DNA of 64,000 nt, taken from assembly GCA_944358305.1 (NCBI GenBank), contig CALVQK010000001.1:163103-227102 (forward strand). The letters run 5' to 3'. The number at the start of each line of letters is the position of its first letter. The stretch's first letter is position 1. The position numbers and the translations under genes were made by a program. The DNA comes from an uncultured Bacilli bacterium. GTDB taxonomy: Bacteria > Bacillota_I > Bacilli_A > RF39 > UBA660. Shown piece by piece: positions 2,035 to 59,968 of this stretch. The notes below the pieces were generated by a model. That model had not been told where the DNA came from. It searched no databases and saw only the letters and a list, made by a program, of their open reading frames with translations.

Positions 2035-2850
2035 ATGACAGATATTATTAATACAATTATTTTAGGAATTATTCAGGGGATTGCAGAGTTCTTACCAATT
2101 TCAAGTAGTGCTCATCTAATTATTTTTAGAGATCTTTTTGGAATTGGCGCTGATATGTCTACAAAAGTAGCATTATGCTTTGATTTAGCTCTCCATTTAG
2201 GTACATTACTTGCCATTGCAGTATTCTTCTTTAAAGACTTTCTTAATATGGTTATAAAAGGAGTTACTAAAGGTGTTAAGGATAAAGAAGGAAAATTATT
2301 CTGGCAAATAGTAGTTGCAACTATTCCTGCTGCTATAGTTGGAGTCTTGTTTGAAAGTACTATCGAAAATGCTATTAGAACAAATTATCTTTTAATTGCA
2401 ACTGCCCTAATAGTAATGGGTATTATCATCTATCTAGTTGATAAAAAATGTAAGGAAGAGAAAAATACTAAAGAAATATCATTTAAAGATGCCATTATTA
2501 TAGGCTGTTCTCAAGTTTTTGCCTTAATACCAGGTTTTTCTCGTAGCGGGACAACTATCGCTAGTGCAAGATGCTTAAAAGTAGATAGAGAAAGTGCTGC
2601 TAAGTTTTCATTTTACTTATCAGCACCAGTTGTTCTTGGAGCCTGTGTTCTTCAACTATTAGATGACGGTGCTATCTCTTTAATACTTGAGAATGCAACA
2701 ATCTTTATTATTGGTATAGTCGTATCTTTTATCGTCGGTTTGATTTGTATTAAGTTTTTATTACAATATCTTAAAAAACATGACTTTAAACTATTTATGA
2801 TTTATCGTATTATTTTAGCAATTATTGTTATTTTAACAGTAATATTTTAA
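2035..2850 (+). CDS. uppP: undecaprenyl-diphosphate phosphatase (UppP/BacA)
   Basis: Polytopic membrane protein carrying the SRSGTTI motif typical of UppP. RBS AAAGAGG upstream of ATG 2035. Confidence 0.8.
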   Translation: MTDIINTIILGIIQGIAEFLPISSSAHLIIFRDLFGIGADMSTKVALCFDLALHLGTLLAIAVFFFKDFLNMVIKGVTKGVKDKEGKLFWQIVVATIPAAIVGVLFESTIENAIRTNYLLIATALIVMGIIIYLVDKKCKEEKNTKEISFKDAIIIGCSQVFALIPGFSRSGTTIASARCLKVDRESAAKFSFYLSAPVVLGACVLQLLDDGAISLILENATIFIIGIVVSFIVGLICIKFLLQYLKKHDFKLFMIYRIILAIIVILTVIF

Positions 2851-2864
2851 GGGGGAAGTGAATC

Positions 2865-3872
2865 ATGATAGATAAATCATTTAAAGAAATATGCGATGGT
2901 ATTAAAAAAGGCGTTAAAGATACACAATTAGAAATTATGGTAAATGCTAATACTAATTTAGTTAATCTTTATTATAGAATAGGGAAAACTCTAGAAGAAA
3001 ATAGTAAGTGGGGTAATAAATTTATTGATACTGTTGCTTTCGAACTTAAAAATACATTTCCTACTTTAAAAGGATTTTCTATTCGTAATTTAAAGTATAT
3101 GAAAACATTTTATAATGAATATAAAGATGAAACTGAATTTGTGCAACTGGTTGCACAATTACCTTGGAAGCATAATATTACTTTATTCCAAAAAGTAAAA
3201 GATAAAAACATTCGTAAATGGTATATGGAAAAATGTTTAGAAGAAGGTTGGTCAAATAATATTTTAATCTATCAGATAGATGCTGATTTATATAAAAGAC
3301 AGGTAGAAAATAAAAAGCACAATAATTTCAAGATTACTTTAAAAGAAAATAGTGATCTTGCTAATAACATTATGAAAGAGCCTTATGTTTTTGATTTAAT
3401 AGAATTAACTGAAGATTATAAGGAAAGAGAATTAGAAAATAAAATGTTAGAACGTTTAAAAAATGTTTTATTAGAATTAGGTAGTGGTTTTTCTTTTGTT
3501 GGTAATCAATATAAAATTACTGTAGACGATGAAGATTTTTATATTGATTTGTTATTCTATCATATTAAATTAAAATGTTATATTGCCATTGAACTTAAAG
3601 TAGGAAAGTTCAAACCTGAATTTGGTAGCAAAATGGGATTTTATTTGACTGCTTTAGATGAACAAGTAAAAGATAATAATGATAATCCATCTATAGGTAT
3701 TATTTTATGTTCTAGTAAGAGCAATAAAATAGTAGATTATACCTTAAAATATATTAATAAACCACTAGGAGTTAGTGAATATAAAATATTTAATGAACTT
3801 CCTAATAACTTATTAAAAGATTTCCCAACGGAAGATGAATTAAATATCTTTATAGATTTAGATGAGGAGTGA
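2865..3872 (+). CDS. YhcG/DUF1016-family PD-(D/E)XK nuclease-like protein
   Basis: The N-terminal region matches the DUF1016 pattern (KWGNKFIDTVAFELKNTFPTLKGFSIRNLKYMKTFY). C-terminal PD-(D/E)XK-like core D..IAIELKVGKFKPE. RBS GGGGGAAG. Confidence 0.6.
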   Translation: MIDKSFKEICDGIKKGVKDTQLEIMVNANTNLVNLYYRIGKTLEENSKWGNKFIDTVAFELKNTFPTLKGFSIRNLKYMKTFYNEYKDETEFVQLVAQLPWKHNITLFQKVKDKNIRKWYMEKCLEEGWSNNILIYQIDADLYKRQVENKKHNNFKITLKENSDLANNIMKEPYVFDLIELTEDYKERELENKMLERLKNVLLELGSGFSFVGNQYKITVDDEDFYIDLLFYHIKLKCYIAIELKVGKFKPEFGSKMGFYLTALDEQVKDNNDNPSIGIILCSSKSNKIVDYTLKYINKPLGVSEYKIFNELPNNLLKDFPTEDELNIFIDLDEE

Positions 3873-3876
3873 TTTT

Positions 3877-4626
3877 ATGCATAATACTCTTGCTTTATTT
3901 ATAACTTTTCTTTTAGGATTTTTTATAGTTATAGGAGTGATAATAGCTTTTTTCTTAAAAAAACAGCAAAAAGTCTTAGATTTTATTTTTGCTTTTGCTC
4001 TTTCAATTCTCACAATGTTAATATTAACAGACTTACTAGGTCATACTATAGAACATTTAGGAATTAAGCATATTTATCTATTTATTCTCTTTACTTGTCT
4101 TGGCCTCTTAATCTTTAAAATAATAGATGATTTTATCCCTGAACATGACGATAGTAAAATGACTAAGAAAGAAGAACATAAAAATATTGTTCATATTGGG
4201 GTGCTTGCAACTATTGCTTTAATTATTCATAACTTTGTAGAAGGTATGGCAATTTACCTAACCGCCACTAATGATATTAACTTAGGTATAATGATGGCTT
4301 TAGGAGTAGGTCTTCATAATATCCCTTTAGGAATAATTATTACTACGACTTTAAATAATGGTGAAAAATTAGGTAAATATCTCTTTTGCATAATTTCTTT
4401 ATTTATTTCTAGTTTTATAGGAGGATTATTACTTTACTTATTAAATATTAATACTGTAAGTGATATAGTAATAGGATCTCTACTTGCTCTTACTATAGGT
4501 ATGCTTTTATATATTATTATCTTTGAGTTATATCCTAAAGTTAAGAAAACTTCCAATAAAAAGATTACTATTATAGGGTTAGGCTGTGGTATTCTAATTG
4601 CCTTGCTAGCAATGATAATAGGCTAG
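3877..4626 (+). CDS. zupT: ZIP-family zinc/metal transporter (ZupT-like)
   Basis: Eight-TM protein with the ZIP signatures HNFVEGMAI and GLHNIPLG. RBS GAGGAG upstream of ATG 3877. Confidence 0.75.
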   Translation: MHNTLALFITFLLGFFIVIGVIIAFFLKKQQKVLDFIFAFALSILTMLILTDLLGHTIEHLGIKHIYLFILFTCLGLLIFKIIDDFIPEHDDSKMTKKEEHKNIVHIGVLATIALIIHNFVEGMAIYLTATNDINLGIMMALGVGLHNIPLGIIITTTLNNGEKLGKYLFCIISLFISSFIGGLLLYLLNINTVSDIVIGSLLALTIGMLLYIIIFELYPKVKKTSNKKITIIGLGCGILIALLAMIIG

Positions 4627-4635
4627 GTGTTGTTT

Positions 4636-5364
4636 ATGTTAGATAAATTTTTAAACCTATTTTTACAATTTATAATTTATTCTTTCTTTGGCTATTTAAT
4701 TGAAGTAACTAGCTGTTCAATGAGAAATAAAAAATTGACATTAAACAGAGGCTTCTTTTTAGGCCCTTATCTACCTATCTTTGGTTTTTCTTGTATGCTA
4801 ATGGGCTTTATTATACTAAGATATAAAAGTGATTTACTTATAGTTTTTGTCATGAGTGCTTTTATCTGTACTACTGTAGAATATATAACAAGCTATGTTT
4901 TAGAGAAAATATTTAAAGCTAGATGGTGGGATTATAGCGATCATAAATTTAATCTAGAAGGTAGAGTTTGTTTATTTAATTCTCTTCTTTTTGGACTGGG
5001 TGGTATAGCTTTCGCTTATATAATTAATCCAATTACAAGTTTTATAATAGACATAATGCCCTTATTTGTCTTTAGAATTATCTCTATTATTTTACTAATT
5101 TTATTTTTAGTAGATGTAATTATAACAATTACGACTTTATATCAAGTAAAAGTATCTTCAATAAAATTTAAAAGCCGTGATGTAACTGCCGAACTTACTA
5201 AAATAATCAGAGAAGAACTTACTAAAAAACGTGATATTAAGACTAACTTTTTTGTTAGACACATGTTAAATGCTTTCCCACAAATTAACCTGAACGATTA
5301 TAATAGTCCACTTAGTAAACTTAAAAGATATAGTACAAAAACATTTAGAAAGAAACAAAAATAA
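4636..5364 (+). CDS. DUF1113-like (putative ABC-transporter type IV family) membrane protein
   Basis: Polytopic membrane protein with the WWDYS...EGRVCLFNSLLFGLGG pattern seen in that family. AGGTG RBS. Confidence 0.4.
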   Translation: MLDKFLNLFLQFIIYSFFGYLIEVTSCSMRNKKLTLNRGFFLGPYLPIFGFSCMLMGFIILRYKSDLLIVFVMSAFICTTVEYITSYVLEKIFKARWWDYSDHKFNLEGRVCLFNSLLFGLGGIAFAYIINPITSFIIDIMPLFVFRIISIILLILFLVDVIITITTLYQVKVSSIKFKSRDVTAELTKIIREELTKKRDIKTNFFVRHMLNAFPQINLNDYNSPLSKLKRYSTKTFRKKQK

Positions 5365-8856: not shown

Positions 8857-9540
8857 ATGACTAAAGTTATCAAGAAGAAAAAATTAAGACTATTACCATT
8901 TTTAATATTTATTATAGTAATCGCTATAATAGTTTTTGTCTGTCTTTTTGTTCTTGATACTAAAGTAAAAAATATTATTATAACAGGAAATGAGGTCCTA
9001 AGTGATGATGAAATCATAGAATTAGCAGGACTTACAGATTATCCAAGTTTCTATAAGACTTTAAATAGTAAGATAGAAAATGGAATTAAAGAAAACCCAC
9101 TTATTAAAGATGTAAATATTGATAGAAGTTTTTATCACATTATTGAAATAAAAGTAGATGAATATGAAATATTATATAAAAGAGAAGATAATGGTAAATA
9201 TGTTTTAGAAAATAAAGATGAAATAACTCTTGATAGTGAAACTCCATACACGATACCAAGATTAATTAATGAAATACCAGATAAAAAATTAAATAGTTTT
9301 ATCAAGTATTATAAAAGAATAGATTTAAACATTAGAGAAAAAATAAGTGAAATAAAGTATGATCCTAATGATTATGATGAAGATAGATTCTTATTATATA
9401 TGGATGATGGTAATAGCGTTTATGTAACTATTACTAAGTTTGAAAGATTAAATTATTATAATGATGTCCTACCTCAATTAGATGGTAGAAAAGGAATACT
9501 TTATTTAGATTCAGGAAACCATTTTAGGATAATGGAATAA
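8857..9540 (+). CDS. divIB: cell division protein DivIB/FtsQ (POTRA domain)
   Basis: Basic N-terminus, single TM and a POTRA-like region. Conserved position after murG-murB. Confidence 0.6.
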   Translation: MTKVIKKKKLRLLPFLIFIIVIAIIVFVCLFVLDTKVKNIIITGNEVLSDDEIIELAGLTDYPSFYKTLNSKIENGIKENPLIKDVNIDRSFYHIIEIKVDEYEILYKREDNGKYVLENKDEITLDSETPYTIPRLINEIPDKKLNSFIKYYKRIDLNIREKISEIKYDPNDYDEDRFLLYMDDGNSVYVTITKFERLNYYNDVLPQLDGRKGILYLDSGNHFRIME

Positions 9541-35647: not shown

Positions 35648-35745
35648 AATGTCTGTCGCTTCTGGGTGGTGCGACTAATAAATGATCCCAATAGGCAATG
35701 TTTGTCGCTTCTGGGTGGTGCGACTAATAAATGATCCCAATAGAA
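35648..35745 (+). ncRNA. candidate type III antitoxin RNA: two tandem 49-nt repeats
   Basis: Unit 1 (35648-35696) and unit 2 (35697-35745) differ at 3 positions. Each holds a GC-rich hairpin GTCGC-ttctgggtggt-GCGAC, anomalous for this AT-rich genome. The repeats are followed by a terminator and then a ToxN/AbiQ-like ORF. Confidence 0.45.
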
Positions 35746-35747
35746 AA

Positions 35748-35785
35748 TAAAAGAAAGTTCTATCAATGATAGAATTTTCTTTTTA
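35748..35785 (+). terminator. terminator-like hairpin between repeats and toxin gene
   Basis: AAAGAAAGTTCTATC-aat-GATAGAATTTTCTTT (about 15 bp, one G:U) followed by TT. Confidence 0.5.
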
Positions 35786-35800
35786 AGTTTGAAAGGAACA

Positions 35801-35829
35801 TTGACGAACATATTTTTGTGTAGTATACT
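35801..35829 (+). promoter_or_regulatory. strong sigma-70-like promoter immediately upstream of the toxin-like ORF
   Basis: TTGACG-17nt-TATACT. RBS GAGGTG 7 nt before ATG 35866. Confidence 0.45.
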
Positions 35830-35865
35830 TTGGTTACAAATTATATATTTATGAGGTGTTAAAAC

Positions 35866-36333
35866 ATGAAAGTAAAAACAGGATATTTATACCATATTAA
35901 AGATGAATTTTTTGATGTTGTTAATGATGAAAATTTAATGGCTAATAAAGAAAAGGGACATAAACGTCCAACTTATTTTACTATAAGAGATAAAGATATA
36001 TTATGGTTTATACCTTTAAGCAGCAAGGTGGATAAATATAAGAAAATAGTTGATAAAAAAATTAAAAAATATGGTAAATGCAATACAATATTGATAAGAA
36101 AAGTTTTTGATGAAGAAAGTGCAATTTTATTGCAAAATACATTCCCAACTTTAGAAAAATATATTGATCATATTCACAAGAGAAATGGTAAGCCTGCTAA
36201 AGTTCCTTCCGTTTTGCAAAAAGATATAGAAAAAAACTTTAAATATATGATAGATCTGAAAAGACATGGTAATAATTTGTTCTTTACTGACATTGATAAA
36301 ATTAAAGAACAGATGTTAAAAGAGCTTAGATAA
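35866..36333 (+). CDS. ToxN/AbiQ-superfamily type III toxin-like endoribonuclease
   Basis: The 155-aa length and N-terminal pattern Y.Y.I.D.F.DVV....RPTYFTI....LWFIPLSSKVDKYKK match the ToxN/AbiQ core (..RPY.G.V.......YFAPLSSPK.KH) as I recall it. Tandem repeats plus a terminator lie upstream. Confidence 0.5.
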   Translation: MKVKTGYLYHIKDEFFDVVNDENLMANKEKGHKRPTYFTIRDKDILWFIPLSSKVDKYKKIVDKKIKKYGKCNTILIRKVFDEESAILLQNTFPTLEKYIDHIHKRNGKPAKVPSVLQKDIEKNFKYMIDLKRHGNNLFFTDIDKIKEQMLKELR

Positions 36334-38172: not shown

Positions 38173-39264
38173 ATGGTAGAAGAAATTAAAACAATGGCTG
38201 AAAGAAAAGAAAAACTTATTAAATTAGGTAAAGAACAAGGATATATTACTTATGAACAACTAGCTAATGAATTAAAAGGACTTGAAGTAGATAGTGATAG
38301 TCTTGATGATTTATATAACAGCCTAGTATCATTAGGAATTGAAATAGTTTCTGAAGATGGTAGTGATGATGCAAGCGGAGCAGAAATAACAGAAAATACT
38401 AAAACAGAGGATTTAACAATGTCTAAAGACATTAAAATAAATGACCCTGTTAGAATGTATTTAAAAGAAATAGGTAGAATTCCACTTTTAACTAGTGACG
38501 AAGAATTTGAATACGCCGAAAGAGCCGTTGATGGTGATGAAGAAGCCAAAAGAATATTAGCAGAATCTAACCTTCGTTTGGTAGTATCAATCGCTAAACG
38601 TTATGTAGGAAGAGGTATGCTTTTTCTTGATTTAATTCAAGAAGGAAATATTGGTCTTATGAAAGCCGTTGAAAAGTTTGACCCTACTAAAGGATACAAA
38701 TTTTCAACATATGCAACTTGGTGGATTAGACAAGCTATAACAAGAGCTATTGCTGATCAAGCTAGAACTATTAGAGTTCCCGTTCATATGGTTGAAACAA
38801 TTAATAAACTAGCTCGTGTTCAAAGACAACTTACTCAAGAATTAAATAGAGAACCAACAGATGATGAAATAGCAGCTAAATTAGAAATACCTGTAGAGAA
38901 GGTAAGAGAAGTATATAAAATTAGTCAAGATCCTGTCGCTTTAGAAACACCTATTGGTGAAGAAGATGATTCTCATTTAGGAGACTTTATTAAAGATGAT
39001 AGAATGATTGGTCCAGAAGAATATACTACTGAAGAAATGCTAAAAGAAGAACTTGCTAGTGTCCTTTTAACATTAACTGATAGAGAAGAGAAAGTATTAA
39101 GATTAAGATTTGGTCTTGATGATGGACAGTGTAGAACCCTAGAAGAAGTAGGACAAATCTTTGGTGTAACAAGAGAGCGCATTAGACAAATAGAAGCAAA
39201 AGCTTTAAGAAAATTAAGGCATCCATCAAGATCAAGAAAGTTAAAGGATTTCTTAACAGATTAA
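38173..39264 (+). CDS. sigA: RNA polymerase primary sigma factor SigA/RpoD
   Basis: Sigma-70 regions 1.2, 2, 3 and 4 ([31 protein letters not shown]; TWWIRQAI). Conserved position after dnaG. Confidence 0.9.
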
Positions 39265-40439: not shown

Positions 40440-42641
40440 ATGAGAGGTAGAAAAAAAGAAAAAAAGGGATTTACGTTAGTAGAGCTTTTAGCAACGATCA
40501 TAATATTAGGCCTATTAACAGCAATCGCTTATATAAGTGTAAGAAGCATTTTAGATAGAGGTAATGACAGTTATTATGTTTCTCAAGAAGATATGCTTGT
40601 TTTAGCAGGAAGAGAATATTATGCTGATCATAGAAGCGAATTACCTAAAGATGTAGGAGATACATCTAATGTAACATTAGAAACATTAATTGAACAAAAA
40701 TATATAGATCCTATTAAAGATAGAAATGAAAATGATTGTGATTTTGTTAATAGTAGTGTGACAGTCCAAAAAATAACAGAGACTGATTATCAATACTATG
40801 GTATTTTAACTTGTAGTGGTGACAATTATCAAACAGAAGAGGATGAAGCAAATCCAGTGATAAAATTTAATCCAAACAAAAAGTCTTCACAAAATTCTAT
40901 AAACGTTACTATGCAAGTTACAGATAATGTAGAAGTTGCCAGTGTTAGATATGTAATAACTAAAGATGGTGAAGCATATCAAGATAGTGGTTATCAAGTA
41001 TACAATGGAGATATTAATATAAGATTAACAGAATTAGGTTTATATGAAATAACAGGATATGCTATTGATACAAGTGGTAATATGACATCTAGAAGATCTG
41101 GTCAATACTCAATTTATAAAGGAGTAGATTGTAGTAATGTTAAATTTACTAGTAGTGATACCATTGCAAACGAAAATATAACTGTTAAAGTAAATGTTCC
41201 AGATAATACTTATAGATGGGAATTAAGTGAAAGAGTAGATGGTGGCTCATATCAATTAATGGAGTCTTATATAGGAAGCGAAGATCAAACTATAGAATTA
41301 TCTGATGAAGGAACTCATCAATTGAGAGCTGTAGTATATGATCAGTATGGTAACACCTGTACATCTACAAGTTCTTCATATACAATTGATAAAACTCCTC
41401 CAACTTTATCAGTAGTTTTAAAGAAAAAGTCAAGTAAAACAGACTTAGGAGAAACAGCTAATATTTCTTCCTTAGCAGATTATACAAATAATACTTGGTA
41501 TAGTGGTTATGTTGTCTTAAGAGGAAGTTGCTCTGACAATAGAGGAAGTTGTACGGTTTCTTATCAAGTTACAGGAGCTTCAACAAACACAGATGGTTAT
41601 GTAAATAAAACTACTCGTAATATTAACGCTGAAGGAACATCAACAGTAACATATAGAGTAACAGATACAGCAGGAAATGTTACAACAAGATCATATACTA
41701 TAAAACTAGATAGAACAGCTCCTTCGTGTCCAACCCTTACATCATCTATCGCTCAAAAGACTTGGACTAATCAAAATGTAAGCTTTACTTTTGACTTTGA
41801 TAATGATACCGACAAGTGGCAATGGTATACAGGTTCTGCTGGTAAATCTTGGACAGATTGGGGAGAAAAACCAATTAGCACTACATCAGTATCTATAAGT
41901 GGAGAAGGTAAAAGAACAATTAAAGTAGGTCTATATGACGAAGCAGGTAATTATAGGGAGTGCTTTGATGGTAACCAATATTATATTGATAAGACCAAAC
42001 CAGTATTAACATACTCTGTAACTCAATCATCAGATAGTTCAAAAGGAGTTTCAGGAAACAGTAAAGATGGTAATGTCTCAAAAAACTTCACTTCTCTTGG
42101 CAACGCTATAAGAAAATTCAGTGCTACAGATAGTGCAAGTGGCATTTCAACTTATCAGTACAACTCTGGCAGTGGTTGGAAGACGGAAACAAAGTATTCT
42201 AGCTATACTGTAAAATCAAATAATAACGCTAGCTACAGAGTTAGGGACAAAGCCGGTAATTATTCTAATACAGTAACTTTAAATATAACTATTCAGGATC
42301 CAGATCCAGACAAAAACTTCAAAGTAACTTGTAAACAAACTTGCCATGGGAATTGTAGTTTAAATGGTTGGAATAACGATACTATCTGGCGTTGGGATAT
42401 TTCAGGTGCAGGTAGTGGTGTTTCTAAAGCTAAACTTGATTATTCAACCGAATGGGTAGATCATTACTGGACAGCTGAAATGACTAAAACTGGTAAGCAA
42501 GTAGTAAGTAAGAGTGGTGGATATGCAGTATTTAATTTACCAACTAAGTTTGAATTTACTAGATCTTATGCCAAACTAAAAATAGTAGGAGATGTTTGGA
42601 CTGTAAATGGTAAGAAAAAAACGTGTACAATACAAGAATAA
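40440..42641 (+). CDS. large type IV pilin-like (prepilin-type N-terminal cleavage/methylation) protein with Ig-like repeats
   Basis: Class III signal peptide KKG|FTLVELLATIIILGLLTAIAY (G-F-T-L-x-E consensus). About 690 aa of repeated beta-rich (Ig-like) modules follow. Confidence 0.65.
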   Translation: MRGRKKEKKGFTLVELLATIIILGLLTAIAYISVRSILDRGNDSYYVSQEDMLVLAGREYYADHRSELPKDVGDTSNVTLETLIEQKYIDPIKDRNENDCDFVNSSVTVQKITETDYQYYGILTCSGDNYQTEEDEANPVIKFNPNKKSSQNSINVTMQVTDNVEVASVRYVITKDGEAYQDSGYQVYNGDINIRLTELGLYEITGYAIDTSGNMTSRRSGQYSIYKGVDCSNVKFTSSDTIANENITVKVNVPDNTYRWELSERVDGGSYQLMESYIGSEDQTIELSDEGTHQLRAVVYDQYGNTCTSTSSSYTIDKTPPTLSVVLKKKSSKTDLGETANISSLADYTNNTWYSGYVVLRGSCSDNRGSCTVSYQVTGASTNTDGYVNKTTRNINAEGTSTVTYRVTDTAGNVTTRSYTIKLDRTAPSCPTLTSSIAQKTWTNQNVSFTFDFDNDTDKWQWYTGSAGKSWTDWGEKPISTTSVSISGEGKRTIKVGLYDEAGNYRECFDGNQYYIDKTKPVLTYSVTQSSDSSKGVSGNSKDGNVSKNFTSLGNAIRKFSATDSASGISTYQYNSGSGWKTETKYSSYTVKSNNNASYRVRDKAGNYSNTVTLNITIQDPDPDKNFKVTCKQTCHGNCSLNGWNNDTIWRWDISGAGSGVSKAKLDYSTEWVDHYWTAEMTKTGKQVVSKSGGYAVFNLPTKFEFTRSYAKLKIVGDVWTVNGKKKTCTIQE

Positions 42642-52384: not shown

Positions 52385-54517
52385 ATGACGATAAAAGAAT
52401 ATGCAGAAGATATTAATAAAAGTATTGAAGATGTAATTAAGCATATGGAACGTCTTGAAATGGATACAAGTGATAAGATGAGAGTATTAAGTGATGATGA
52501 AGTAATTTTATTAGATAATTCTTTTCAAGATGAAGAAGATTACGTAGATACTACGCCAGATGAAGAAATGATTAATGATTTCTCCTTAGATGAAAAAGCA
52601 GAACAAATAGCTTATGATTCAAATCTTACTAATGATAACGAGATTAAAACAAGTAAAGTAAAGAAAGTAAAAAAACAGGAGAAAGATAAAAGTAACTTTA
52701 AACAAGAAAGAAAAAATATATATAAACATAAAGAAAAACTTCAAAGTAATGAACAGTCTATTGATGAAAATGTTTTGTTATACAAAGAAGGCATGACTGT
52801 AGCTGATGTTGCTTCTGCCTTAAATGTTTCTCCAAGTGAGATTATTATGAAATTAATGGGCTTAGGTATTATGGCTACTGCTAATAATTCTCTTAATTTT
52901 GAAGATGTAGAAGTACTAGCTTTAGATTATAATAAGACTGTAAAAAAAGAAGAAACTGCCGATATTTCTAATTTTGAAAATTATGAGATAGAAGATAAGG
53001 AAGAAGACTTAGTAGAACGTCCTCCTGTCGTTACTATTATGGGACACGTTGATCATGGTAAAACTACTTTACTAGATACTATCAGAAAGAGTAATGTTGT
53101 AGACAGCGAAGCAGGAGGAATAACTCAAGAAATTGGGGCTTATCAAGTAGAATGTAATGGTAAAAAAATAACTTTTATCGATACTCCAGGCCATGAAGCT
53201 TTTACAGAGATGAGAGCAAGAGGTGCTAGTGTCACTGATATAGTTATAATCATAGTAGCAGCAGATGATGGTGTTATGCCACAAACAAAAGAAGCAATTG
53301 ATCATGCTAAAGCAGCAGGGGTTCCAATTATCGTTTGTATTAATAAAATAGATAAGCCAGGTGTCACTGATGCTAATATTGAAAAAGTTATGACTAGTTT
53401 AGTAGAAGCAGGTCTTACTCCTGAAGAGTGGGGTGGAGATACTATTGTTACTAAAATATCTGCTAAAACTGGCCAAGGTGTTGACGAATTATTAGAAAAT
53501 ATTCTTTTAATTGCTGAAATGCAAGAATTAAAAGCTAATCCTAATCGTTATGCTACAGGAGCTGTTTTAGAAAGTAAAATGGATAAACATGTAGGAGCAG
53601 TTGCAACGCTACTTATCGGAAACGGTACTTTAAGATTAGGGGACCCTCTTGTTGTAGGAACTACTTTTGGTAAAGTTAGAACCCTAAAAGATGATTTAGG
53701 AAGAAATATTGTTGAAGCACCACCTGCTATGCCAGTAGAAATTACAGGTTTATCTAGTGTTCCAAGTGCTGGTGATAAATTTATGGCTTTTGAAACTGAA
53801 AAACAAGCTAAACAAATAGCAAGTGATAGATCCCTAAGAGCTAAAGATGCTGATACAAATAGAACTGGTATGAGCCTAGAAGAATTATTTGGACAAATTA
53901 ATGAAGGCCTTAAAGAAATAAATGTTATTTTAAAAACAGATACTAACGGTAGTCTAGAAGCTGTTAAATCATCTCTAGAAAAAATAGATGTAGAAGGTGT
54001 TAAAATAAATGTTATTCGTAGTGCCGTTGGTGGTATTACGGAAAGTGATATTGTTCTAGCTGGCGCTTCTAATGCTATTATTATCGGCTTTAATGTTAGA
54101 GGCAGTAATAAAGTAGTTGATATGGCTAAAGAATACAATATTGAAATAAGACTATATGATATTATTTATAAAGTTGTAGAAGATATGGAAAAAGCTATGA
54201 AAGGTATGCTAGAACCAATCTATGAAGAAAAAGTAACAGGAACTGCCGAAATTAGACAATTATTTAAATTCTCTAAAGTTGGTATGATAGCAGGTTGTCA
54301 TGTAACATCAGGAGTAATAAAAAATAATGACAAAGCTAGAGTCGTAAGAGATGGTATAGTTATTTATAATGGAACCATTAAATCACTTCAACACGAAAAA
54401 GACCAGATTAAAGAGATTTCTAAAGACCATGATTGTGGACTAACTCTGGATAATTTCCAAGATTATAAAGAAGGAGATACTATTGAAGTATACGAGTTAG
54501 TAGAAATAGAAAGATAA
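52385..54517 (+). CDS. infB: translation initiation factor IF-2
   Basis: G domain ([25 protein letters not shown]) and the IF-2 C-terminal domains. Confidence 0.95.
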
Positions 54518-54534
54518 AAGAAGTAGAGAAATAT

Positions 54535-55050
54535 CTACTTCTTTTTATCTTGTAAGTCTATTTTATAAACTTTTACGTTTTCTACATGATCTAGAGAATA
54601 TAATAAATTATCTTTAGGGACACTTCCTTCATATATTAAATGCCCATTATTATTAAGCGCCACCTTTTGTGAATAAATATTATCCGGAACAGTAGCAATT
54701 ACAAGACCATTTTCTAGGGCATACTTATTATTTTTAAGAGCTTCTTTTAAAAGCTTTAAAGCCATAGTAGCATATCCTTGATTCCTAAATTTCTCTTCAA
54801 TGTAGTAACTTACATTACCTCCAAAAAATAAATCATCATTACTAGAACTATGAAAACTAATAGATCCAATTATTTCTAATGATTCATTAAGGCTGATTTT
54901 TAAAGAGATAAAAGATGAAGTTAAAAGATCATCACCGAAAGATCTAGATGCTAAACTAATCTTATCATTTGCTACTATCTCATTAAACCCATCAGCACTT
55001 TTAGGATTAAAGTCAAGTCCACTATTAAAATAATCATAGAATTTAAACAT
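54535..55050 (-). CDS. GNAT-family N-acetyltransferase
   Basis: Acetyl-CoA-binding motif RNQGYATMALKLLKEA. Start probably at Met 18 of the tracked ORF (RBS AAGGAAGAGAAG), which avoids overlap with the upstream gene. Confidence 0.6.
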   Translation of the reverse strand: MFKFYDYFNSGLDFNPKSADGFNEIVANDKISLASRSFGDDLLTSSFISLKISLNESLEIIGSISFHSSSNDDLFFGGNVSYYIEEKFRNQGYATMALKLLKEALKNNKYALENGLVIATVPDNIYSQKVALNNNGHLIYEGSVPKDNLLYSLDHVENVKVYKIDLQDKKK

Positions 55051-57514
55051 TCTGAGCTTCTCTTCCTTTACAAAGAACCTTTTTATCTCTAAAATACTCA
55101 TCCTTTGAACACTCTAAACAACTTTTTGTTAAATTAATAACAGTTTCAATAGGCACATTCATAATATTAGCAACTTCTTCACTAGAGAAAAACTTACAAT
55201 CAAAATATCCAAGCCTCAAAGCTAATATTTTTTTCTCTAAATCACTACATGTACTCACATAATTTTTAAAAACAGATTGTTCTAAAGCCTTTATTCCTTT
55301 AAGAATTTTTCCTTTACTATCTTTTTCTTTAATATTTTCTAAATCCTTTTCGTTGATTTTAACACTATCTGTTTTTCTAAAATTATCCCTAATCATAAAC
55401 TCTTCTAAAAAATTAGGCCATAATGTGATATTTAAATCATTATCTTCATCAACACTATTAATAATTTTAGTTAAAGAATTTCTTTCATACTTTCTTGCAT
55501 CATCATAACTAATAGAAAGCTTTGAAGAAATTTCTCTACGAGTTTGATAAACAAGATGATTATCTTTAACTAAACAAATCTCCTGTAAATAATTAATTTC
55601 ATTATTAGAAAAAGTAATTTTAATACTAGCTTTTTCTAAATCAATATAATTACTTAAATCAGGGAAAATACTTAAAGCTTCTCGTTTTAAATTTTCATTT
55701 GTCTTTATTTTTTGAAACAACGTATAACGTAGTACTAAATAATCTAATAGACTATCAACATTTAATTTTTCTCTCATTTCTTCACTAGTTAAAGGGCTAT
55801 TCTTATGTCTATTTAGCAATTTCAAAAACTTTATTTCTAAATTAGATAACATCTCACACTCTTTTATATCATAACTAATTTTACTCTTTAGTTCCATTAC
55901 TTGCTCATACAAATTAGTATCAGCTGATATAACAGTAAATAGTTCCTTTTCATCGGCACTTTTATAATCTTCATATCCTTCATTAGTAGCAATAATCCTA
56001 CTAACTAGTTGTTTATGTCTGTGAATAAAATCTTTTAATTCTCTTTTTTTAATAGATGTATTATTCTTACTTTTAACAGGTAATAAAAGAGTAGAAGGAT
56101 CACTACAATACTTTAATGCTTCTTCTAAAATTTCCTTATCGCTAAGAATCTTATTGAACAAAGCTGTTTTTCTTATTGAATAACCTCTTTTACTTTTATA
56201 GTCAAGTCTTGAGGCCATTTCTTCATTCGATAGAGGATCACCCTTAGTTTCTTCTAATAACATTAATAATTTTATTTCTTTGTCAGTTAATAACTTTTCA
56301 TTATTTTGCTCTTTAATTTCAATTTCCCTTTTACTAACATCAAGGTTTTTATAATATGATAAAGCTTCCTCTAACAAAATAGGATTTTTTCTTAATTTAC
56401 TAAATAAATTACTTTTAAAAACTAAAAATGCTTTTTTACTGCCATAATTACCCAACTTTGCAAGTTTATCAGCATTAATATCTGTACTATCATGATATTT
56501 GTTTAATAAAATAAGCAATCTAATTTCTTTCTTTGTTAAGTACCCTCTATTCTTTAACACTTCATAATCAAAGTCAGGAATAAATTTTTTAGCTATTTTA
56601 ACTAACTCATTATTTCTAGTAAGCTTTTTAAATATTTTAATCCTTGCATCAATATAATGAAAAACATCAGCATATCCTTCTATATTAATATCATCCTTAG
56701 TAACTGCTTTGTCTTTAAATCTCCATAAAAATTTTAAACATTTCAACTCTTCATAGGCAAGTTTACTAACAGGTTCTTTGCGTTCATAACTTTTTCCTTT
56801 AGTTAACTTAAATTTAAGTTTCTCTTTTCTTTTTTGCAAATTATTCTCTAGATTAGGAAACTCTTCTAATAATTTTTTAAGATTATTACCTTTTTGAAGT
56901 TTATTAAAGGCTCTAATTAAATCTTCTTTAATAATGTCAGGAGCTTTTTTATATTTAGTAGATAATTGATTGATAGATAAAGGTTTCTCTACCGCACCAC
57001 AGAATTCTTTAATAAGCTCTAATTGATAAACTGACATAGTATTATTTTTTTCTTCAAAATATTTATCTCGCTTTTTAGAAATATTTCTATACCCTGGAAA
57101 AATCCTTTCAACTTCATTTTTATCTTTCTTAAAAGCTGTGCTAATAACATCACTAACAGTATTAACACCATAGTGAAGCATTTCAGCAATTTCCATTTTA
57201 GAAAGATATTTTCCATCTTGCATATTAAAATAAAGTGAAAGTACTTTATATTCAAAACTTGTAAATATTCCCGTATCAATTTCTTCTTTTTCTTTAATAG
57301 ATCTTTTTATCACTGCTTTAAGATGGAATAAAAAAGGTAACTTAACTTCTTCTGTACATGTATCAATCGCTTGTTTTAAATAATCATCTACCATCTCTTC
57401 ATCAAAGTCGACCTTAAGGGCCTCTAAATATTTCCTAATTTCATTTTTAAAATAATTAGTTCTTTCGCTATCGCCATTTTTTAATTTTTTTACTACTTCT
57501 AGATTTTGATTCAT
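55043..57514 (-). CDS. large protein built from at least five tandem sigma-70 region-4-like helix-turn-helix repeats
   Basis: Repeating units of about 60-65 aa with the pattern L(S/T)..E(I/L).LL.LL.......L(S/T).EE(M/I)A..L......(V/I)......(A/L)..K(I/L), e.g. YLSKMEIAEMLHYGVNTVSDVISTAFKK and LTDKEIKLLMLLEETKGDPLSNEEMASRLDY...IRKTALFNKI. Confidence 0.5.
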   Translation of the reverse strand: MNQNLEVVKKLKNGDSERTNYFKNEIRKYLEALKVDFDEEMVDDYLKQAIDTCTEEVKLPFLFHLKAVIKRSIKEKEEIDTGIFTSFEYKVLSLYFNMQDGKYLSKMEIAEMLHYGVNTVSDVISTAFKKDKNEVERIFPGYRNISKKRDKYFEEKNNTMSVYQLELIKEFCGAVEKPLSINQLSTKYKKAPDIIKEDLIRAFNKLQKGNNLKKLLEEFPNLENNLQKRKEKLKFKLTKGKSYERKEPVSKLAYEELKCLKFLWRFKDKAVTKDDINIEGYADVFHYIDARIKIFKKLTRNNELVKIAKKFIPDFDYEVLKNRGYLTKKEIRLLILLNKYHDSTDINADKLAKLGNYGSKKAFLVFKSNLFSKLRKNPILLEEALSYYKNLDVSKREIEIKEQNNEKLLTDKEIKLLMLLEETKGDPLSNEEMASRLDYKSKRGYSIRKTALFNKILSDKEILEEALKYCSDPSTLLLPVKSKNNTSIKKRELKDFIHRHKQLVSRIIATNEGYEDYKSADEKELFTVISADTNLYEQVMELKSKISYDIKECEMLSNLEIKFLKLLNRHKNSPLTSEEMREKLNVDSLLDYLVLRYTLFQKIKTNENLKREALSIFPDLSNYIDLEKASIKITFSNNEINYLQEICLVKDNHLVYQTRREISSKLSISYDDARKYERNSLTKIINSVDEDNDLNITLWPNFLEEFMIRDNFRKTDSVKINEKDLENIKEKDSKGKILKGIKALEQSVFKNYVSTCSDLEKKILALRLGYFDCKFFSSEEVANIMNVPIETVINLTKSCLECSKDEYFRDKKVLCKGREAQNV

Positions 57515-57596
57515 AAGTATCCCCCTAACTAAGACAATTATATCTAAAAAGTTAAAAATATGCTATAATTATTTAAAGAAAGGACGAGAAAATATT

Positions 57597-57947
57597 ATGA
57601 ATATAAAAATTGAAAGAATTAATCACATGATTAGAGAAGAAATAAGTAAAATTTTAATGTTGGAAGTTAAAGATGAAAATATAAAATTCGTAACTGTTAC
57701 TGATTGTGATACATCAAATGATTTAAGTTATTGCAAAGTATATGTAACAGTCTTAGATAGTGAAAAAAAAGAGGAAACTTTAAAAGCTTTAAATAATGCT
57801 AGTAGTTTTATAAGAGGAGAGCTTGCTAAGAGAATTGAGATAAGAAATATTCCTGAACTTAAATTTTTCTATGATGAGTCTATTTCTTATGGAGAAAAGA
57901 TTGATAAGATTATAGATAAAATAAATGAGGAAGATAATGAACTATAA
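57597..57947 (+). CDS. rbfA: ribosome-binding factor A
   Basis: N-terminus ...RINHMIREEISKIL... and KH-like fold length. Conserved position after infB. Confidence 0.85.
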   Translation: MNIKIERINHMIREEISKILMLEVKDENIKFVTVTDCDTSNDLSYCKVYVTVLDSEKKEETLKALNNASSFIRGELAKRIEIRNIPELKFFYDESISYGEKIDKIIDKINEEDNEL

Positions 57948-59346
57948 GATTATCGTTAATAAAGAAAAATTATATAACAAAAAAGATTTTTCAAATATTG
58001 AATTCAAAAAAATAGTTAGTACCCTAAATGAAGAATATTTACTTGAAAAAAGAACTTTAAAAGCCTATCTTGATTTAAAAAGAGATTTAGAAAAAGAAAA
58101 TATTTTTATAGATATTGCAAGTGGTTACAGAAGTGTAGAAGAACAAATTGATCTAATAGAAGAGTTTACTAACACTTATGGTAGTGATTATACAGAAAAG
58201 TATGTCGCTAAGCCTAAAACCAGTGAACATCATACAGGCCTTGCTTTTGATGTTGATCTAGTTATTGATAATAAAGTTGTTTATGATAATAATATATTAT
58301 TTGAACAAGTTGAAACTTGGGAAAAGATAATTAGTATTTTACCTAACTATGGACTAATACTAAGATACCCCAAAGGAAAAGAAAAAATCACAGGTTATAA
58401 TTATGAACCATGGCATTATCGTTATGTTGGTAAAAGTACTGCTAAAATAATAATGGAAAATAACTTAACTTTAGAAGAGTATGATAAATTATATAATAAA
58501 TCAGGAATTCTTTTAGTTAACAAGCCTAAAGGCATTACTTCAAGAGATGTCGTTAATAAAATAGAAAGAATATTTGATACTAAAAAAGTAGGACATAACG
58601 GCACTCTTGATCCTTTAGCAGAAGGATTACTTGTAATTACTATTAATAGGTCGACTAAAGTAAATGAATTATTAACAAGTACCGAAAAAGAGTATATTGC
58701 TGAAGTTAAAATAGGAATAGAAACAGATACTTTAGATTTAGAAGGCAAAGTAGAAAAAACTAGTGATAAAAAGATAACTAAAGATATGTTAGATAATCTT
58801 TTTACAAACCTTAAAAGAGAATATCTTCAAGAAGTTCCTAAATATTCAGCAATTAAAGTTAGTGGTAAAAAATTATATGAATATGCTAGGAATAATGAGA
58901 TGGTAGAGCTACCAAAAAGAAAAGTTATTATAAAAGAACTAGAATTATTAGATTATAAAGAAGATAGTTTTAAATTTAGATGTCTTGTATCTAAAGGAAC
59001 ATACATTAGAAGCCTTATTAAAGATATGGGAGATTTTTTAGATATTCCTTGTACTATGAAAAGTCTTCTAAGAACAAAGCAAGGAAAGTTTTCCCTAAAA
59101 GATGCTTTAGATTTAGAAGAAGTTAATATAAATAGTAACTTAATTAGTATTAGTAATGCTTTAGATATAGATAAAAAGGAAATAGAAGCTAGAGATTATA
59201 AAAAAATAATAAATGGCGCTTCTATAAATAACACATACAATATTAAAAACGAAGTATTATTTATTAAAAACAATAAAGAGATAGCCATTTATAAAAATAT
59301 TAATAGTAAATTAATTTGTTATAAAATGATAAATGAGACTAATTAA
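57925..59346 (+). CDS. truB: in-frame fusion: VanY-like M15 D-Ala-D-Ala carboxypeptidase domain + tRNA pseudouridine(55) synthase TruB
   Basis: The N-terminal ~180 aa carry SGYRSVEEQ, SEHHTGLAFDVD and EPWHYRYVG...LTLEEY (VanY/M15B signatures). They continue without a stop into TruB (GILLVNKPKGITSRDVV...VGHNGTLDPLAEGLL...KVSGKKLYEYAR). Confidence 0.65.
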   Translation: MRKIMNYKIIVNKEKLYNKKDFSNIEFKKIVSTLNEEYLLEKRTLKAYLDLKRDLEKENIFIDIASGYRSVEEQIDLIEEFTNTYGSDYTEKYVAKPKTSEHHTGLAFDVDLVIDNKVVYDNNILFEQVETWEKIISILPNYGLILRYPKGKEKITGYNYEPWHYRYVGKSTAKIIMENNLTLEEYDKLYNKSGILLVNKPKGITSRDVVNKIERIFDTKKVGHNGTLDPLAEGLLVITINRSTKVNELLTSTEKEYIAEVKIGIETDTLDLEGKVEKTSDKKITKDMLDNLFTNLKREYLQEVPKYSAIKVSGKKLYEYARNNEMVELPKRKVIIKELELLDYKEDSFKFRCLVSKGTYIRSLIKDMGDFLDIPCTMKSLLRTKQGKFSLKDALDLEEVNINSNLISISNALDIDKKEIEARDYKKIINGASINNTYNIKNEVLFIKNNKEIAIYKNINSKLICYKMINETN

Positions 59347-59968
59347 GTCTCATTTTAATATCCTCACTTATTATATCAGTACAAAGTTTTATAAATGGTT
59401 TAATATTATCTATATCAAAAGAATAAGCAAAGCTCTTCTTACTATTTTCAATAATTATTCCCATCTTATCAACTATTATCTGTAACTTATCAATTGGTAT
59501 CTCATCAAAATCAATGTTAGGAGTCCTTAACTCTTCATAAAACAATGATAAGTCCAAATTATATTCATCAATAAGTAAAACATTTAAATTAGTATAATCA
59601 TTATAAATTAGTCTTGTTATCTCCTCTGCACTACATTTAAGCGTTTCTCCAGATAAAAGTTTTATATAGTCATTACTATTAGATATTTCCCTAATAAAAT
59701 ATTTAAACCAAAGATAATCTGTAAAAAGATGAATATAATATCCCATTATGAAAGGACTATCTAATTTCTTTTCATATTTCTTTAAAAAAGCTTCTAAATT
59801 AGGTAGGTCACTATCTTTATTAGTTAAAAAATGAGACTTAACTTTAGTTTCTCCTAAATGTTTACTAATATCAGGAGCAATTGTTCCTAAAAATAGTTCC
59901 TTTTCATTCATATTTAAATTTTTATTAATTTCTTTAGCGACTGCTAAATGTATAACTGCACTTGCCAT
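59339..59968 (-). CDS. hypothetical protein, possibly zinc-dependent phospholipase C-family-like metal hydrolase
   Basis: VIHLAVAKE...APD..H...YYIHLFTDYLW resembles the H/PD/H..HL.TD pattern of that family. Weak. Confidence 0.3.
   Translation of the reverse strand: MASAVIHLAVAKEINKNLNMNEKELFLGTIAPDISKHLGETKVKSHFLTNKDSDLPNLEAFLKKYEKKLDSPFIMGYYIHLFTDYLWFKYFIREISNSNDYIKLLSGETLKCSAEEITRLIYNDYTNLNVLLIDEYNLDLSLFYEELRTPNIDFDEIPIDKLQIIVDKMGIIIENSKKSFAYSFDIDNIKPFIKLCTDIISEDIKMRLN

Follow-up and report, generated by a model that had tools for sequence, protein, structure and literature searches.

A sigma-derived protein with eight chained region 4-like helix-turn-helix units encoded beside infB in an uncultured Bacilli bacterium

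Introduction

Few bacterial proteins have been studied as thoroughly as sigma factors. Here we describe, in a 64,000-nucleotide (nt) stretch of DNA from an uncultured Bacilli bacterium (GenBank assembly GCA_944358305.1, contig CALVQK010000001.1, positions 163,103 to 227,102; hereafter the window, numbered from its first letter), a minus-strand gene encoding an 823-amino acid (aa) product, for which we use the working name X. Profile comparisons show that X descends from a complete sigma-70-family factor, probably of the SigK/SigE-like group, and it carries eight helix-turn-helix (HTH) units of the sigma region 4 (sigma4) type. What appears to be new is the architecture of the family to which it belongs, with 4-20 chained sigma4-like units, a conserved motif that we call Y and a cysteine pair, whilst the component domains are known.

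Results

The X locus

X and a second minus-strand gene, encoding a GNAT acetyltransferase, lie between infB and rbfA (Table 1), an arrangement described in an original prediction made from the sequence alone and confirmed here by the open reading frame (ORF) map and by assignment of the second product to the Pfam family Acetyltransf_3. In the window nusA and ylxR precede infB, and a VanY-TruB fusion gene lies beyond rbfA. A TATAAT element, a -10 of the sigmaA type, and a strong Shine-Dalgarno sequence, recognized by consensus only, were also found upstream of X orthologues in seven of the eight other aligned loci. The G+C content of X and the GNAT gene (0.25-0.28) matches that of the flanks (0.23-0.31), a protein identical to X is encoded on 16 public contigs, and Rfam and tRNA scans of the window gave nothing relevant.

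Table 1. Features of the X locus, with positions in the window and, for parts of X, residues of the protein. HMM: hidden Markov model; pLDDT: predicted local distance difference test score; AF2: AlphaFold2.
Feature	Position	Strand	Description
infB	52385-54517	+	Flank of the GNAT/X pair
Terminator-like hairpin	54516-54545	.	Bidirectional, intrinsic-terminator-like, 12-bp stem; separates the convergent 3' ends of infB and GNAT
GNAT gene	54535-55050	-	171 aa from ATG 55050; longest ORF 188 aa, to 55101
X	55043-57514	-	823-aa ORF, stop codon 55043-55045
R8 (aa 753-823)	55046-55258	-	Sigma region 4 homologue of the 'LALRLGYF' type; repeat unit aa 753-812
Y segment (aa 703-752)	55259-55408	-	Invariant motif WPNF..EF.IRDNF....S; disorder predicted by AF2
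R7 (aa 633-702)	55409-55618	-	Conserved HTH opening the C-terminal module
Central array	55640-56770	-	R3 (aa 249-316), R4 (324-392), R5 (406-474), lineage-specific non-repeat insert (475-554), R6 (555-625); repeat HMM 47-61 bits per unit
R2 (aa 158-224)	56843-57043	-	HTH closing the conserved N-terminal module
R1 (aa 82-146)	57077-57271	-	HTH aligning to SigK/SigE-like region 4; model pLDDT >90 (m313ba9d9fd58)
N domain (aa 1-80)	57275-57514	-	Divergent sigma-70 region 2-like four-helix domain
Divergent promoter region	57515-57596	.	82-nt gap between X and rbfA; consensus matches only
X Shine-Dalgarno GGGGGA	57525-57520	-	Consensus match
X -10-like TATAAT	57542-57537	-	Consensus match
rbfA extended -10-like TGcTATAAT	57561-57569	+	Consensus match
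rbfA	57597-57947	+	Other flank of the GNAT/X pair

Eight helix-turn-helix units

Self-comparison of X by BLASTP gave no off-diagonal match, and the units are only 19-37% identical; HMM and profile methods were needed because the repeats are too diverged for BLASTP. An iterated repeat HMM delineated eight homologous units of ~65 aa, R1 to R8 (each domain E <= 1e-3; spans in Table 1), and an HMM of three repeats picked up a fourth unit at 9.3 bits, the peak among 500 shuffles being 5.8. The original prediction of at least five repeats of ~60 aa was therefore right in that the repeats are real beyond chance, and fell short in their number. Among the 147 ORFs of at least 60 aa in the window, the repeat HMM matched only X and the housekeeping sigma factor, the best stretch of the latter being its region 4 (14.6 bits, with an E-value that holds for the 147-ORF set only). 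Comparison of slices of the family alignment using hhalign linked R3, R4, R5 and R6 to one another (88-98% probability, E 1e-6 to 7e-13), and profile-profile links also joined R1 with R8 (92%), R1 with R5 (60%) and R2 with R7 (56%). The central units share the consensus LTxKEIkiLkLL..(k)..LS.EEiAkkL.Y.s..s....K..LfkKl..ne.LkeeaL.iyP.l.

The assignment of these repeats to HTH domains of the sigma region 4 or LuxR type, also made originally, was borne out. R8 scored 23.3 bits against Pfam Sigma70_r4 (PF04545; cut-off 24.1), a cut-off passed by the relatives P0053 (30.2), P0078 (28.3) and P0098 (30.8), and PF04545 matched eight of 24 family C-terminal modules (C modules: R7, Y and R8) at E <= 0.1. 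A C-terminal profile aligned to canonical region 4 of Pfam-verified sigma factors with an hhalign probability of 97% (E 8e-11), R8 and region 4 of the RpoD encoded in the same window share 35% identity (BLASTP E 4e-5), and a further hhalign alignment placed R2 on sigma region 4 (35%). That RpoD is canonical (38173-39264, adjoining dnaG; NF006666, 592 bits against a cut-off of 572), and X was rejected as the housekeeping sigma factor since a separate one is present.

The resemblance of the units to LuxR/GerE domains is at the level of the fold only: PF00196 had no match in X and weak ones in the C modules of two of 24 relatives. A LuxR/GerE domain is found singly in a protein and works as a dimer, whereas in X the units follow one another in cis, with a slightly longer turn and an extra C-terminal helix ending (Y/F)P(D/E/N)(L/F). 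Pfam searches of X and its relatives recovered no TPR, HEAT or PPR-type family, and using a full-length, low-confidence model of X as the Foldseek query PPR10 appeared only at ranks 42-45 (probability 0.11-0.12). The possibility that the repeats are a generic TPR-like helical repeat, which had been named at the outset as fatal to the assignment, thus has neither a TPR-like family nor a competing fold in its favour. A phmmer search of PDB sequences with full-length X returned only a chance match to ribosomal protein S18.

The N-terminal sigma region 2-like domain

The N domain carries the motif ELVxxLKxGDxxRxxFF...AIDxYxxxxxIPFLFHLKxxIK. Aligned to region 2 of Pfam-verified sigma factors it gave an hhalign score of 26.6 (E 2.7e-4) with 69 columns in register, whereas 40 column shuffles averaged 11.2 and did not exceed 15.4. 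Together, N and R1 (aa 1-145) are collinear with regions 2 and 4 of SigK/SigE-like sigma factors (hhalign 95%, E 2.7e-8). When the 245-aa N module (N, R1 and R2) was used as a Foldseek query all 50 top PDB matches were sigma factors, with ~200-270 columns aligned; SigD and Clostridioides difficile SigA had a probability of 0.99. E-values over all these matches were modest (0.003 and above), and TM-scores were low because the domain orientations differ. Against PDB sequences the top match of the N-domain profile was region 2 of SigI6 (E 0.075), and the profile of the whole N module found only marginal matches to the winged HTH domains of MarR and BirA. The presence of this sigma region 2-like domain means that X is not the plain concatenation of region 4 domains originally envisaged, and shows that its ancestor was a complete sigma factor.

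The spacing between N and R1 is only about 8-10 residues, and ~55 linker residues of the template have no counterpart. In sigma factors the linker between region 2 (sigma2) and sigma4 must thread through RNA polymerase (RNAP), which takes a region 3/3.2 or ECF linker of roughly at least 20 residues; N-R1 falls short of this, and in X a long path runs only between N and R8. With so short a linker the N+R1 pair cannot fill both sigma sites on RNAP. Deletion of the threading linker makes it probable that X is no longer a canonical sigma factor, and such a role would be possible only if R8 served as sigma4. Compared with SigK/SigE-like group-3 sigma factors (PF04542 plus PF04545), to whose region 2 N corresponds and to whose region 4 both R1, collinearly, and R8 correspond, X has a region 2 unseen by Pfam, a deleted linker, six further sigma4-like units and the Y motif, and members of its family are 562-1915 aa long as against about 230 aa for SigK/SigE. 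Within region 2.2 of X the QEG core-binding signature has been lost and there is a 4-residue deletion, whilst the aromatics of region 2.3 are partly retained.

The C-terminal module

The invariant columns of the Y motif are W699, N701, F702, E705, F706, R709, D710, F712 and S717, and AF2 pLDDT values are 30-34 across aa 685-735. No homology was detectable between Y and the sigma 3.2 linker. The TIGR02947 and RpoE models aligned weakly over aa 714-794, that is, linker plus region 4 (E 0.015-0.034), and the C-module profile matched no sigma factor among PDB sequences at E <= 1.

Two cysteines of R8 on the minus strand, C756 (nt ~55247-55249) before helix 1 and C799 (~55118-55120) in the recognition helix, are invariant or nearly so family-wide. 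True sigma factors lack the pair in their related domain, and it could be redox-sensitive or metal-binding.

Sigma factors with a related terminal domain

The weaker tail of the family search consisted of genuine sigma factors that end in an R8-type LRLGY domain. The SigK/SigE-like proteins P0110, P0118, P0109, P0122 and P0101 (440-533 aa) and the RpoD-like P0127 (711 aa) carry C-terminal extensions of 230-320 aa; these include one or two extra region 4-like HTH domains and close with an 'LRLGY(V/I)DxK(F/Y)FS' domain. Such extended sigma factors are the nearest non-family matches to the family profile (E 6e-13 to 1.5e-6). They keep a canonical core, scoring 188-287 bits to SigK or RpoD models (188-212 bits for the SigK/SigE-like ones), and their LRLGY domain comes after their own region 4. 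They resemble X in the terminal 'LxLRLGYxDxKFFSxxEIA' domain and the helix that precedes it (~40% identity by eye), and differ from X in their canonical core, their few extra units and their lack of both the Y motif and the cysteine pair. Because it ends sigma factors of both the SigK/SigE-like and the RpoD-like kind, the LRLGY domain can be tied to transcription initiation. Our searches found no description of an LRLGY accessory sigma domain, and as an accessory domain of true sigma factors it deserves study.

The family and its selection

An exhaustive profile search recovered 169 representatives at E <= 1e-3, of which 48 had E <= 1e-30. A word-index search alone had yielded ten clusters, and its N-module version, probably swamped by low-complexity lysine-rich words, two fragments. 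Among the 150 clusters listed (50% identity), at least 33 are full-length with both end modules, measuring 562-1479 aa and containing 4-16 units; the largest member, P0072, has 1915 aa and 20 units. The N and C modules are conserved throughout the family, the central array varies from 4 to about 20 units, and certain members have central units that are almost the same as one another (up to 95% identity). Between P0054 and P0056 the end modules are 97% identical, yet the proteins contain 16 and 11 units, respectively, counts to be read with the caveat that short-read assemblies may collapse repeats of this sort.

The family is confined to uncultured low-GC gut Bacilli, represented by 'Tenericutes'-like metagenome-assembled genomes (MAGs). 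Its sole named member is HIT37408.1, a 'hypothetical protein' of Candidatus Onthousia faecipullorum (Bacilli incertae sedis), and an orthologue 84% identical to X, at locus L009, comes from a MAG labelled 'uncultured Tenericutes bacterium'. The remark in the original prediction that no such described family was known agrees with our searches: X passed no curated Pfam or NCBIfam cut-off, PADLOC gave no match and PHROGs a sub-threshold one only, and no description of a sigma-derived protein chaining sigma4-like units was found in the searchable literature or the PDB.

Comparison with the L009 orthologue gave an overall ratio of nonsynonymous to synonymous substitution rates (dN/dS) of 0.26. By part, dN/dS was 0.12-0.19 for N and R1, 0.30-0.58 for the central units, which are the least constrained, and 0.08, 0.07 and 0.04 for R7, Y and R8, respectively. 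This pattern marks X as a real gene under purifying selection with its ends the most important parts and, together with conservation of the family, rules out an artefact or a pseudogene.

Genomic position and the GNAT gene

Synteny was read from contigs encoding family members, to which scans of metagenomes (six sequences) and of genome contigs added one locus each. In all nine family loci examined, X runs convergently towards the end of the nusA-ylxR-infB(-rbfA) cluster, even at ~25% protein identity: it lies between infB and rbfA in the window, L009, P0009, P0072 and P0053 and after rbfA in P0054 and P0078, whilst in P0044 and L010 it is convergent with infB and the upstream flank is a paralogue or was not resolved. 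At L011 two tandem family paralogues (3-2234 and 2291-4696) are both convergent with infB. Since distant relatives keep the arrangement, and the G+C content equals that of the flanks, the position of X is ancestral for the whole family, and the two genes are not a recent acquisition at the infB-rbfA junction, although the original term 'inserted' implies an acquisition. A mobile-element or defence origin was likewise rejected: tblastn found no X homologues in 50,697 phage or 72,556 plasmid records, there was no PADLOC match and composition is flank-like.

So constant a position could suggest that X works with its neighbours (NusA, IF2, RbfA and TruB) as a helical repeat protein of RNA or ribosome biogenesis, with a RimJ/RimL-like GNAT, Acetyltransf_3 being the RimJ/RimL family. 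We regard this as highly improbable. The neighbourhood is syntenic clade-wide, an unrelated Rce1-like gene recurring upstream of nusA, so a conserved position need not imply a shared function. Moreover, X lies on the opposite strand with promoter-like and terminator-like signals of its own, rbfA switches side between lineages, all homology found is to transcription-type HTH domains, and the GNAT gene is absent or decaying in relatives.

The GNAT passes the Pfam cut-offs for Acetyltransf_3 (PF13302; 36.4 against 25.4 bits) and Acetyltransf_1 (24.7 against 20.7 bits) and has no close solved structure. Most public gene calls place its start at ATG 55050 (171 aa), where it overlaps the X stop codon by 8 nt, with an AGGAAG Shine-Dalgarno sequence 11 nt upstream. 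Overlap and ribosome-binding site together make translational coupling of X and GNAT, as originally suggested, plausible; a lasting association of the two is another matter, as the gene was found only in the species group of the window and was absent in the other lineages examined. At L009 a remnant (8978-9191) matches aa 115-166 of the GNAT at 81% identity with no ORF, which has the look of a gene that decayed recently. As an accessory the GNAT is dispensable and specific to its lineage, and it is no conserved partner of X.

Discussion

We tentatively read X as a multivalent DNA-binding factor of sigma origin that associates with promoters or RNAP and has a transcriptional or architectural role, a reading that is plausible but short of probable. 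As to its origin, a SigK/SigE-like sigma factor would first have gained a C-terminal HTH extension; next the sigma2-sigma4 linker would have been lost and region 2 have degenerated, and then the HTH units would have multiplied. For its action we infer DNA binding, contact with RNAP and a role for repeat number. The HTH string would lie along DNA with the mostly basic central units engaging it, the conserved ends (the sigma2-like N domain, the Y motif and the LRLGY domain) would dock on RNAP or a partner, and how much DNA is engaged would depend on the number of repeats. TALE, mTERF and Myb repeats offer an analogy, being copy-variable small helical nucleic acid-binding modules with no homology to X, and by that analogy it may be speculated that each unit of X binds one DNA segment.

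Several observations weigh against this interpretation. Neither X nor the N module of any of 24 family members had a match to Pfam Sigma70_r2 (PF04542) at E <= 0.1, so that the N domain must be strongly diverged. The recognition helix of R8, VPIETVINLTKSCL, is acidic to neutral and not arginine-rich, and R5 and R7 have a net negative charge; some units may accordingly mediate protein contacts and not DNA binding. The central repeats are basic on average (+2.2 per unit, 68% positive, n=292), which is weak evidence since the proteome is lysine-rich and AT-rich. Reading by eye upstream of nine loci revealed no shared operator-like repeat. Finally, a conserved, apparently disordered Y segment before a sigma4-like domain also fits a true sigma factor, where it would resemble a 3.2-like linker.

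This last point leads to a giant alternative sigma factor, in which N would occupy the beta' clamp helices as sigma2 and R8 the beta flap as sigma4, with Y as the region 3.2 linker, whilst the HTH array would replace sigma3 outside the enzyme and read extra upstream promoter elements. We consider X somewhat unlikely to be such a protein. Its sigma2-like domain and a region 4 homologue stand at the extreme N and C termini and are the most conserved parts, an invariant, low-pLDDT segment of ~50 aa directly precedes R8, the weak TIGR02947 and RpoE alignments cover linker plus region 4, and all structural neighbours are sigma factors. However, the collinear sigma4 is R1, too close behind sigma2 to span RNAP, and an LRLGY domain is an additional domain in bona fide sigma factors, and so not obviously a flap-binding sigma4. 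Region 2.2 is without the QEG signature, in alignment with the RpoD of the window the R8 recognition helix lacks the -35-contacting arginines, Y shows no region 3.2 homology, and a variable number of repeats between 4 and 20 is hard to square with a fixed promoter geometry. Were X nonetheless still a sigma factor, the accepted limits of sigma architecture would be stretched.

Charge and linker length bear also on whether X mimics a sigma factor, as a decoy or a partner-switching scaffold. Its compact N+R1 unit and its many sigma4-like units would then titrate anti-sigma-like proteins, activators whose usual docking site is sigma4, or the beta flap, and not bind DNA. The sigma-like domain of PhyR sets a precedent for a short-linker sigma2-sigma4 unit repurposed to protein-protein interaction, the short linker of X would likewise give a closed unit, PF22233 (PhyR_sigma-like) matches one family member (E 0.005), and R8 and R7 have acidic recognition helices. 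Yet X lacks both a receiver domain and a NepR-like partner, its resemblances to PhyR are weak, unspecific and of the generic fold only, no anti-sigma-like or receiver partner is conserved beside the gene in the loci examined, and most central units are basic, as nucleic acid binding would predict. A mimic is in our judgement distinctly improbable.

Returning to the reading of X as a multivalent DNA-binding factor, a bolder form of it would make the family a new class of transcription initiation factor, in which the sigma4-like array reads extended or repeated DNA unit by unit whilst the ends hold RNAP. We think this quite unlikely. If true, the gain or loss of repeats, which occurs even between 97%-identical proteins, would retarget or retune the factor, and the family would represent a built-in sigma-plus-activator array or a TALE-like HTH reader. 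Even if the array simply binds DNA, it would show a route from a sigma factor to a multivalent DNA reader and provide a natural, length-variable scaffold of minimal HTH modules. Given purifying selection, the small genomes of its hosts and their few regulators, the family probably accounts for a major share, as yet unannotated, of how these bacteria regulate their genes.

Other features of the window

Beyond rbfA, the fusion gene at 57925-59346 (+) encodes a 473-aa protein joining VanY (aa 39-170), a D-Ala-D-Ala carboxypeptidase domain, to TruB_N (aa 215-361). A cell-wall peptidase domain and a tRNA pseudouridine synthase make an odd combination, and the fusion is kept in the relatives L001, L005 and L015. 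A 209-aa ORF lies antisense between truB and rpsO (59339-59968, -) with a weak match to zinc-dependent phospholipase C (24.8 against 26.8 bits), and its position is conserved in the relatives L001, L002, L004 and L005.

A type III toxin-antitoxin locus occupies 35648-36333: a 49-nt unit occurs twice at 97% identity (35648-35743), and directly 3' of these repeats an ORF (35866-36333, +) encodes a 155-aa toxin of the CptIN family (NF047359, 169.5 bits against a cut-off of 90). The 49-nt repeats are expected to be the antitoxin RNA. The 733-aa product encoded at 40440-42641 (+) bears the prepilin-type signal KKGFTLVELL at its N terminus; it is pseudopilin- or competence pilin-like and unusually large for a 'Tenericutes'-like genome.

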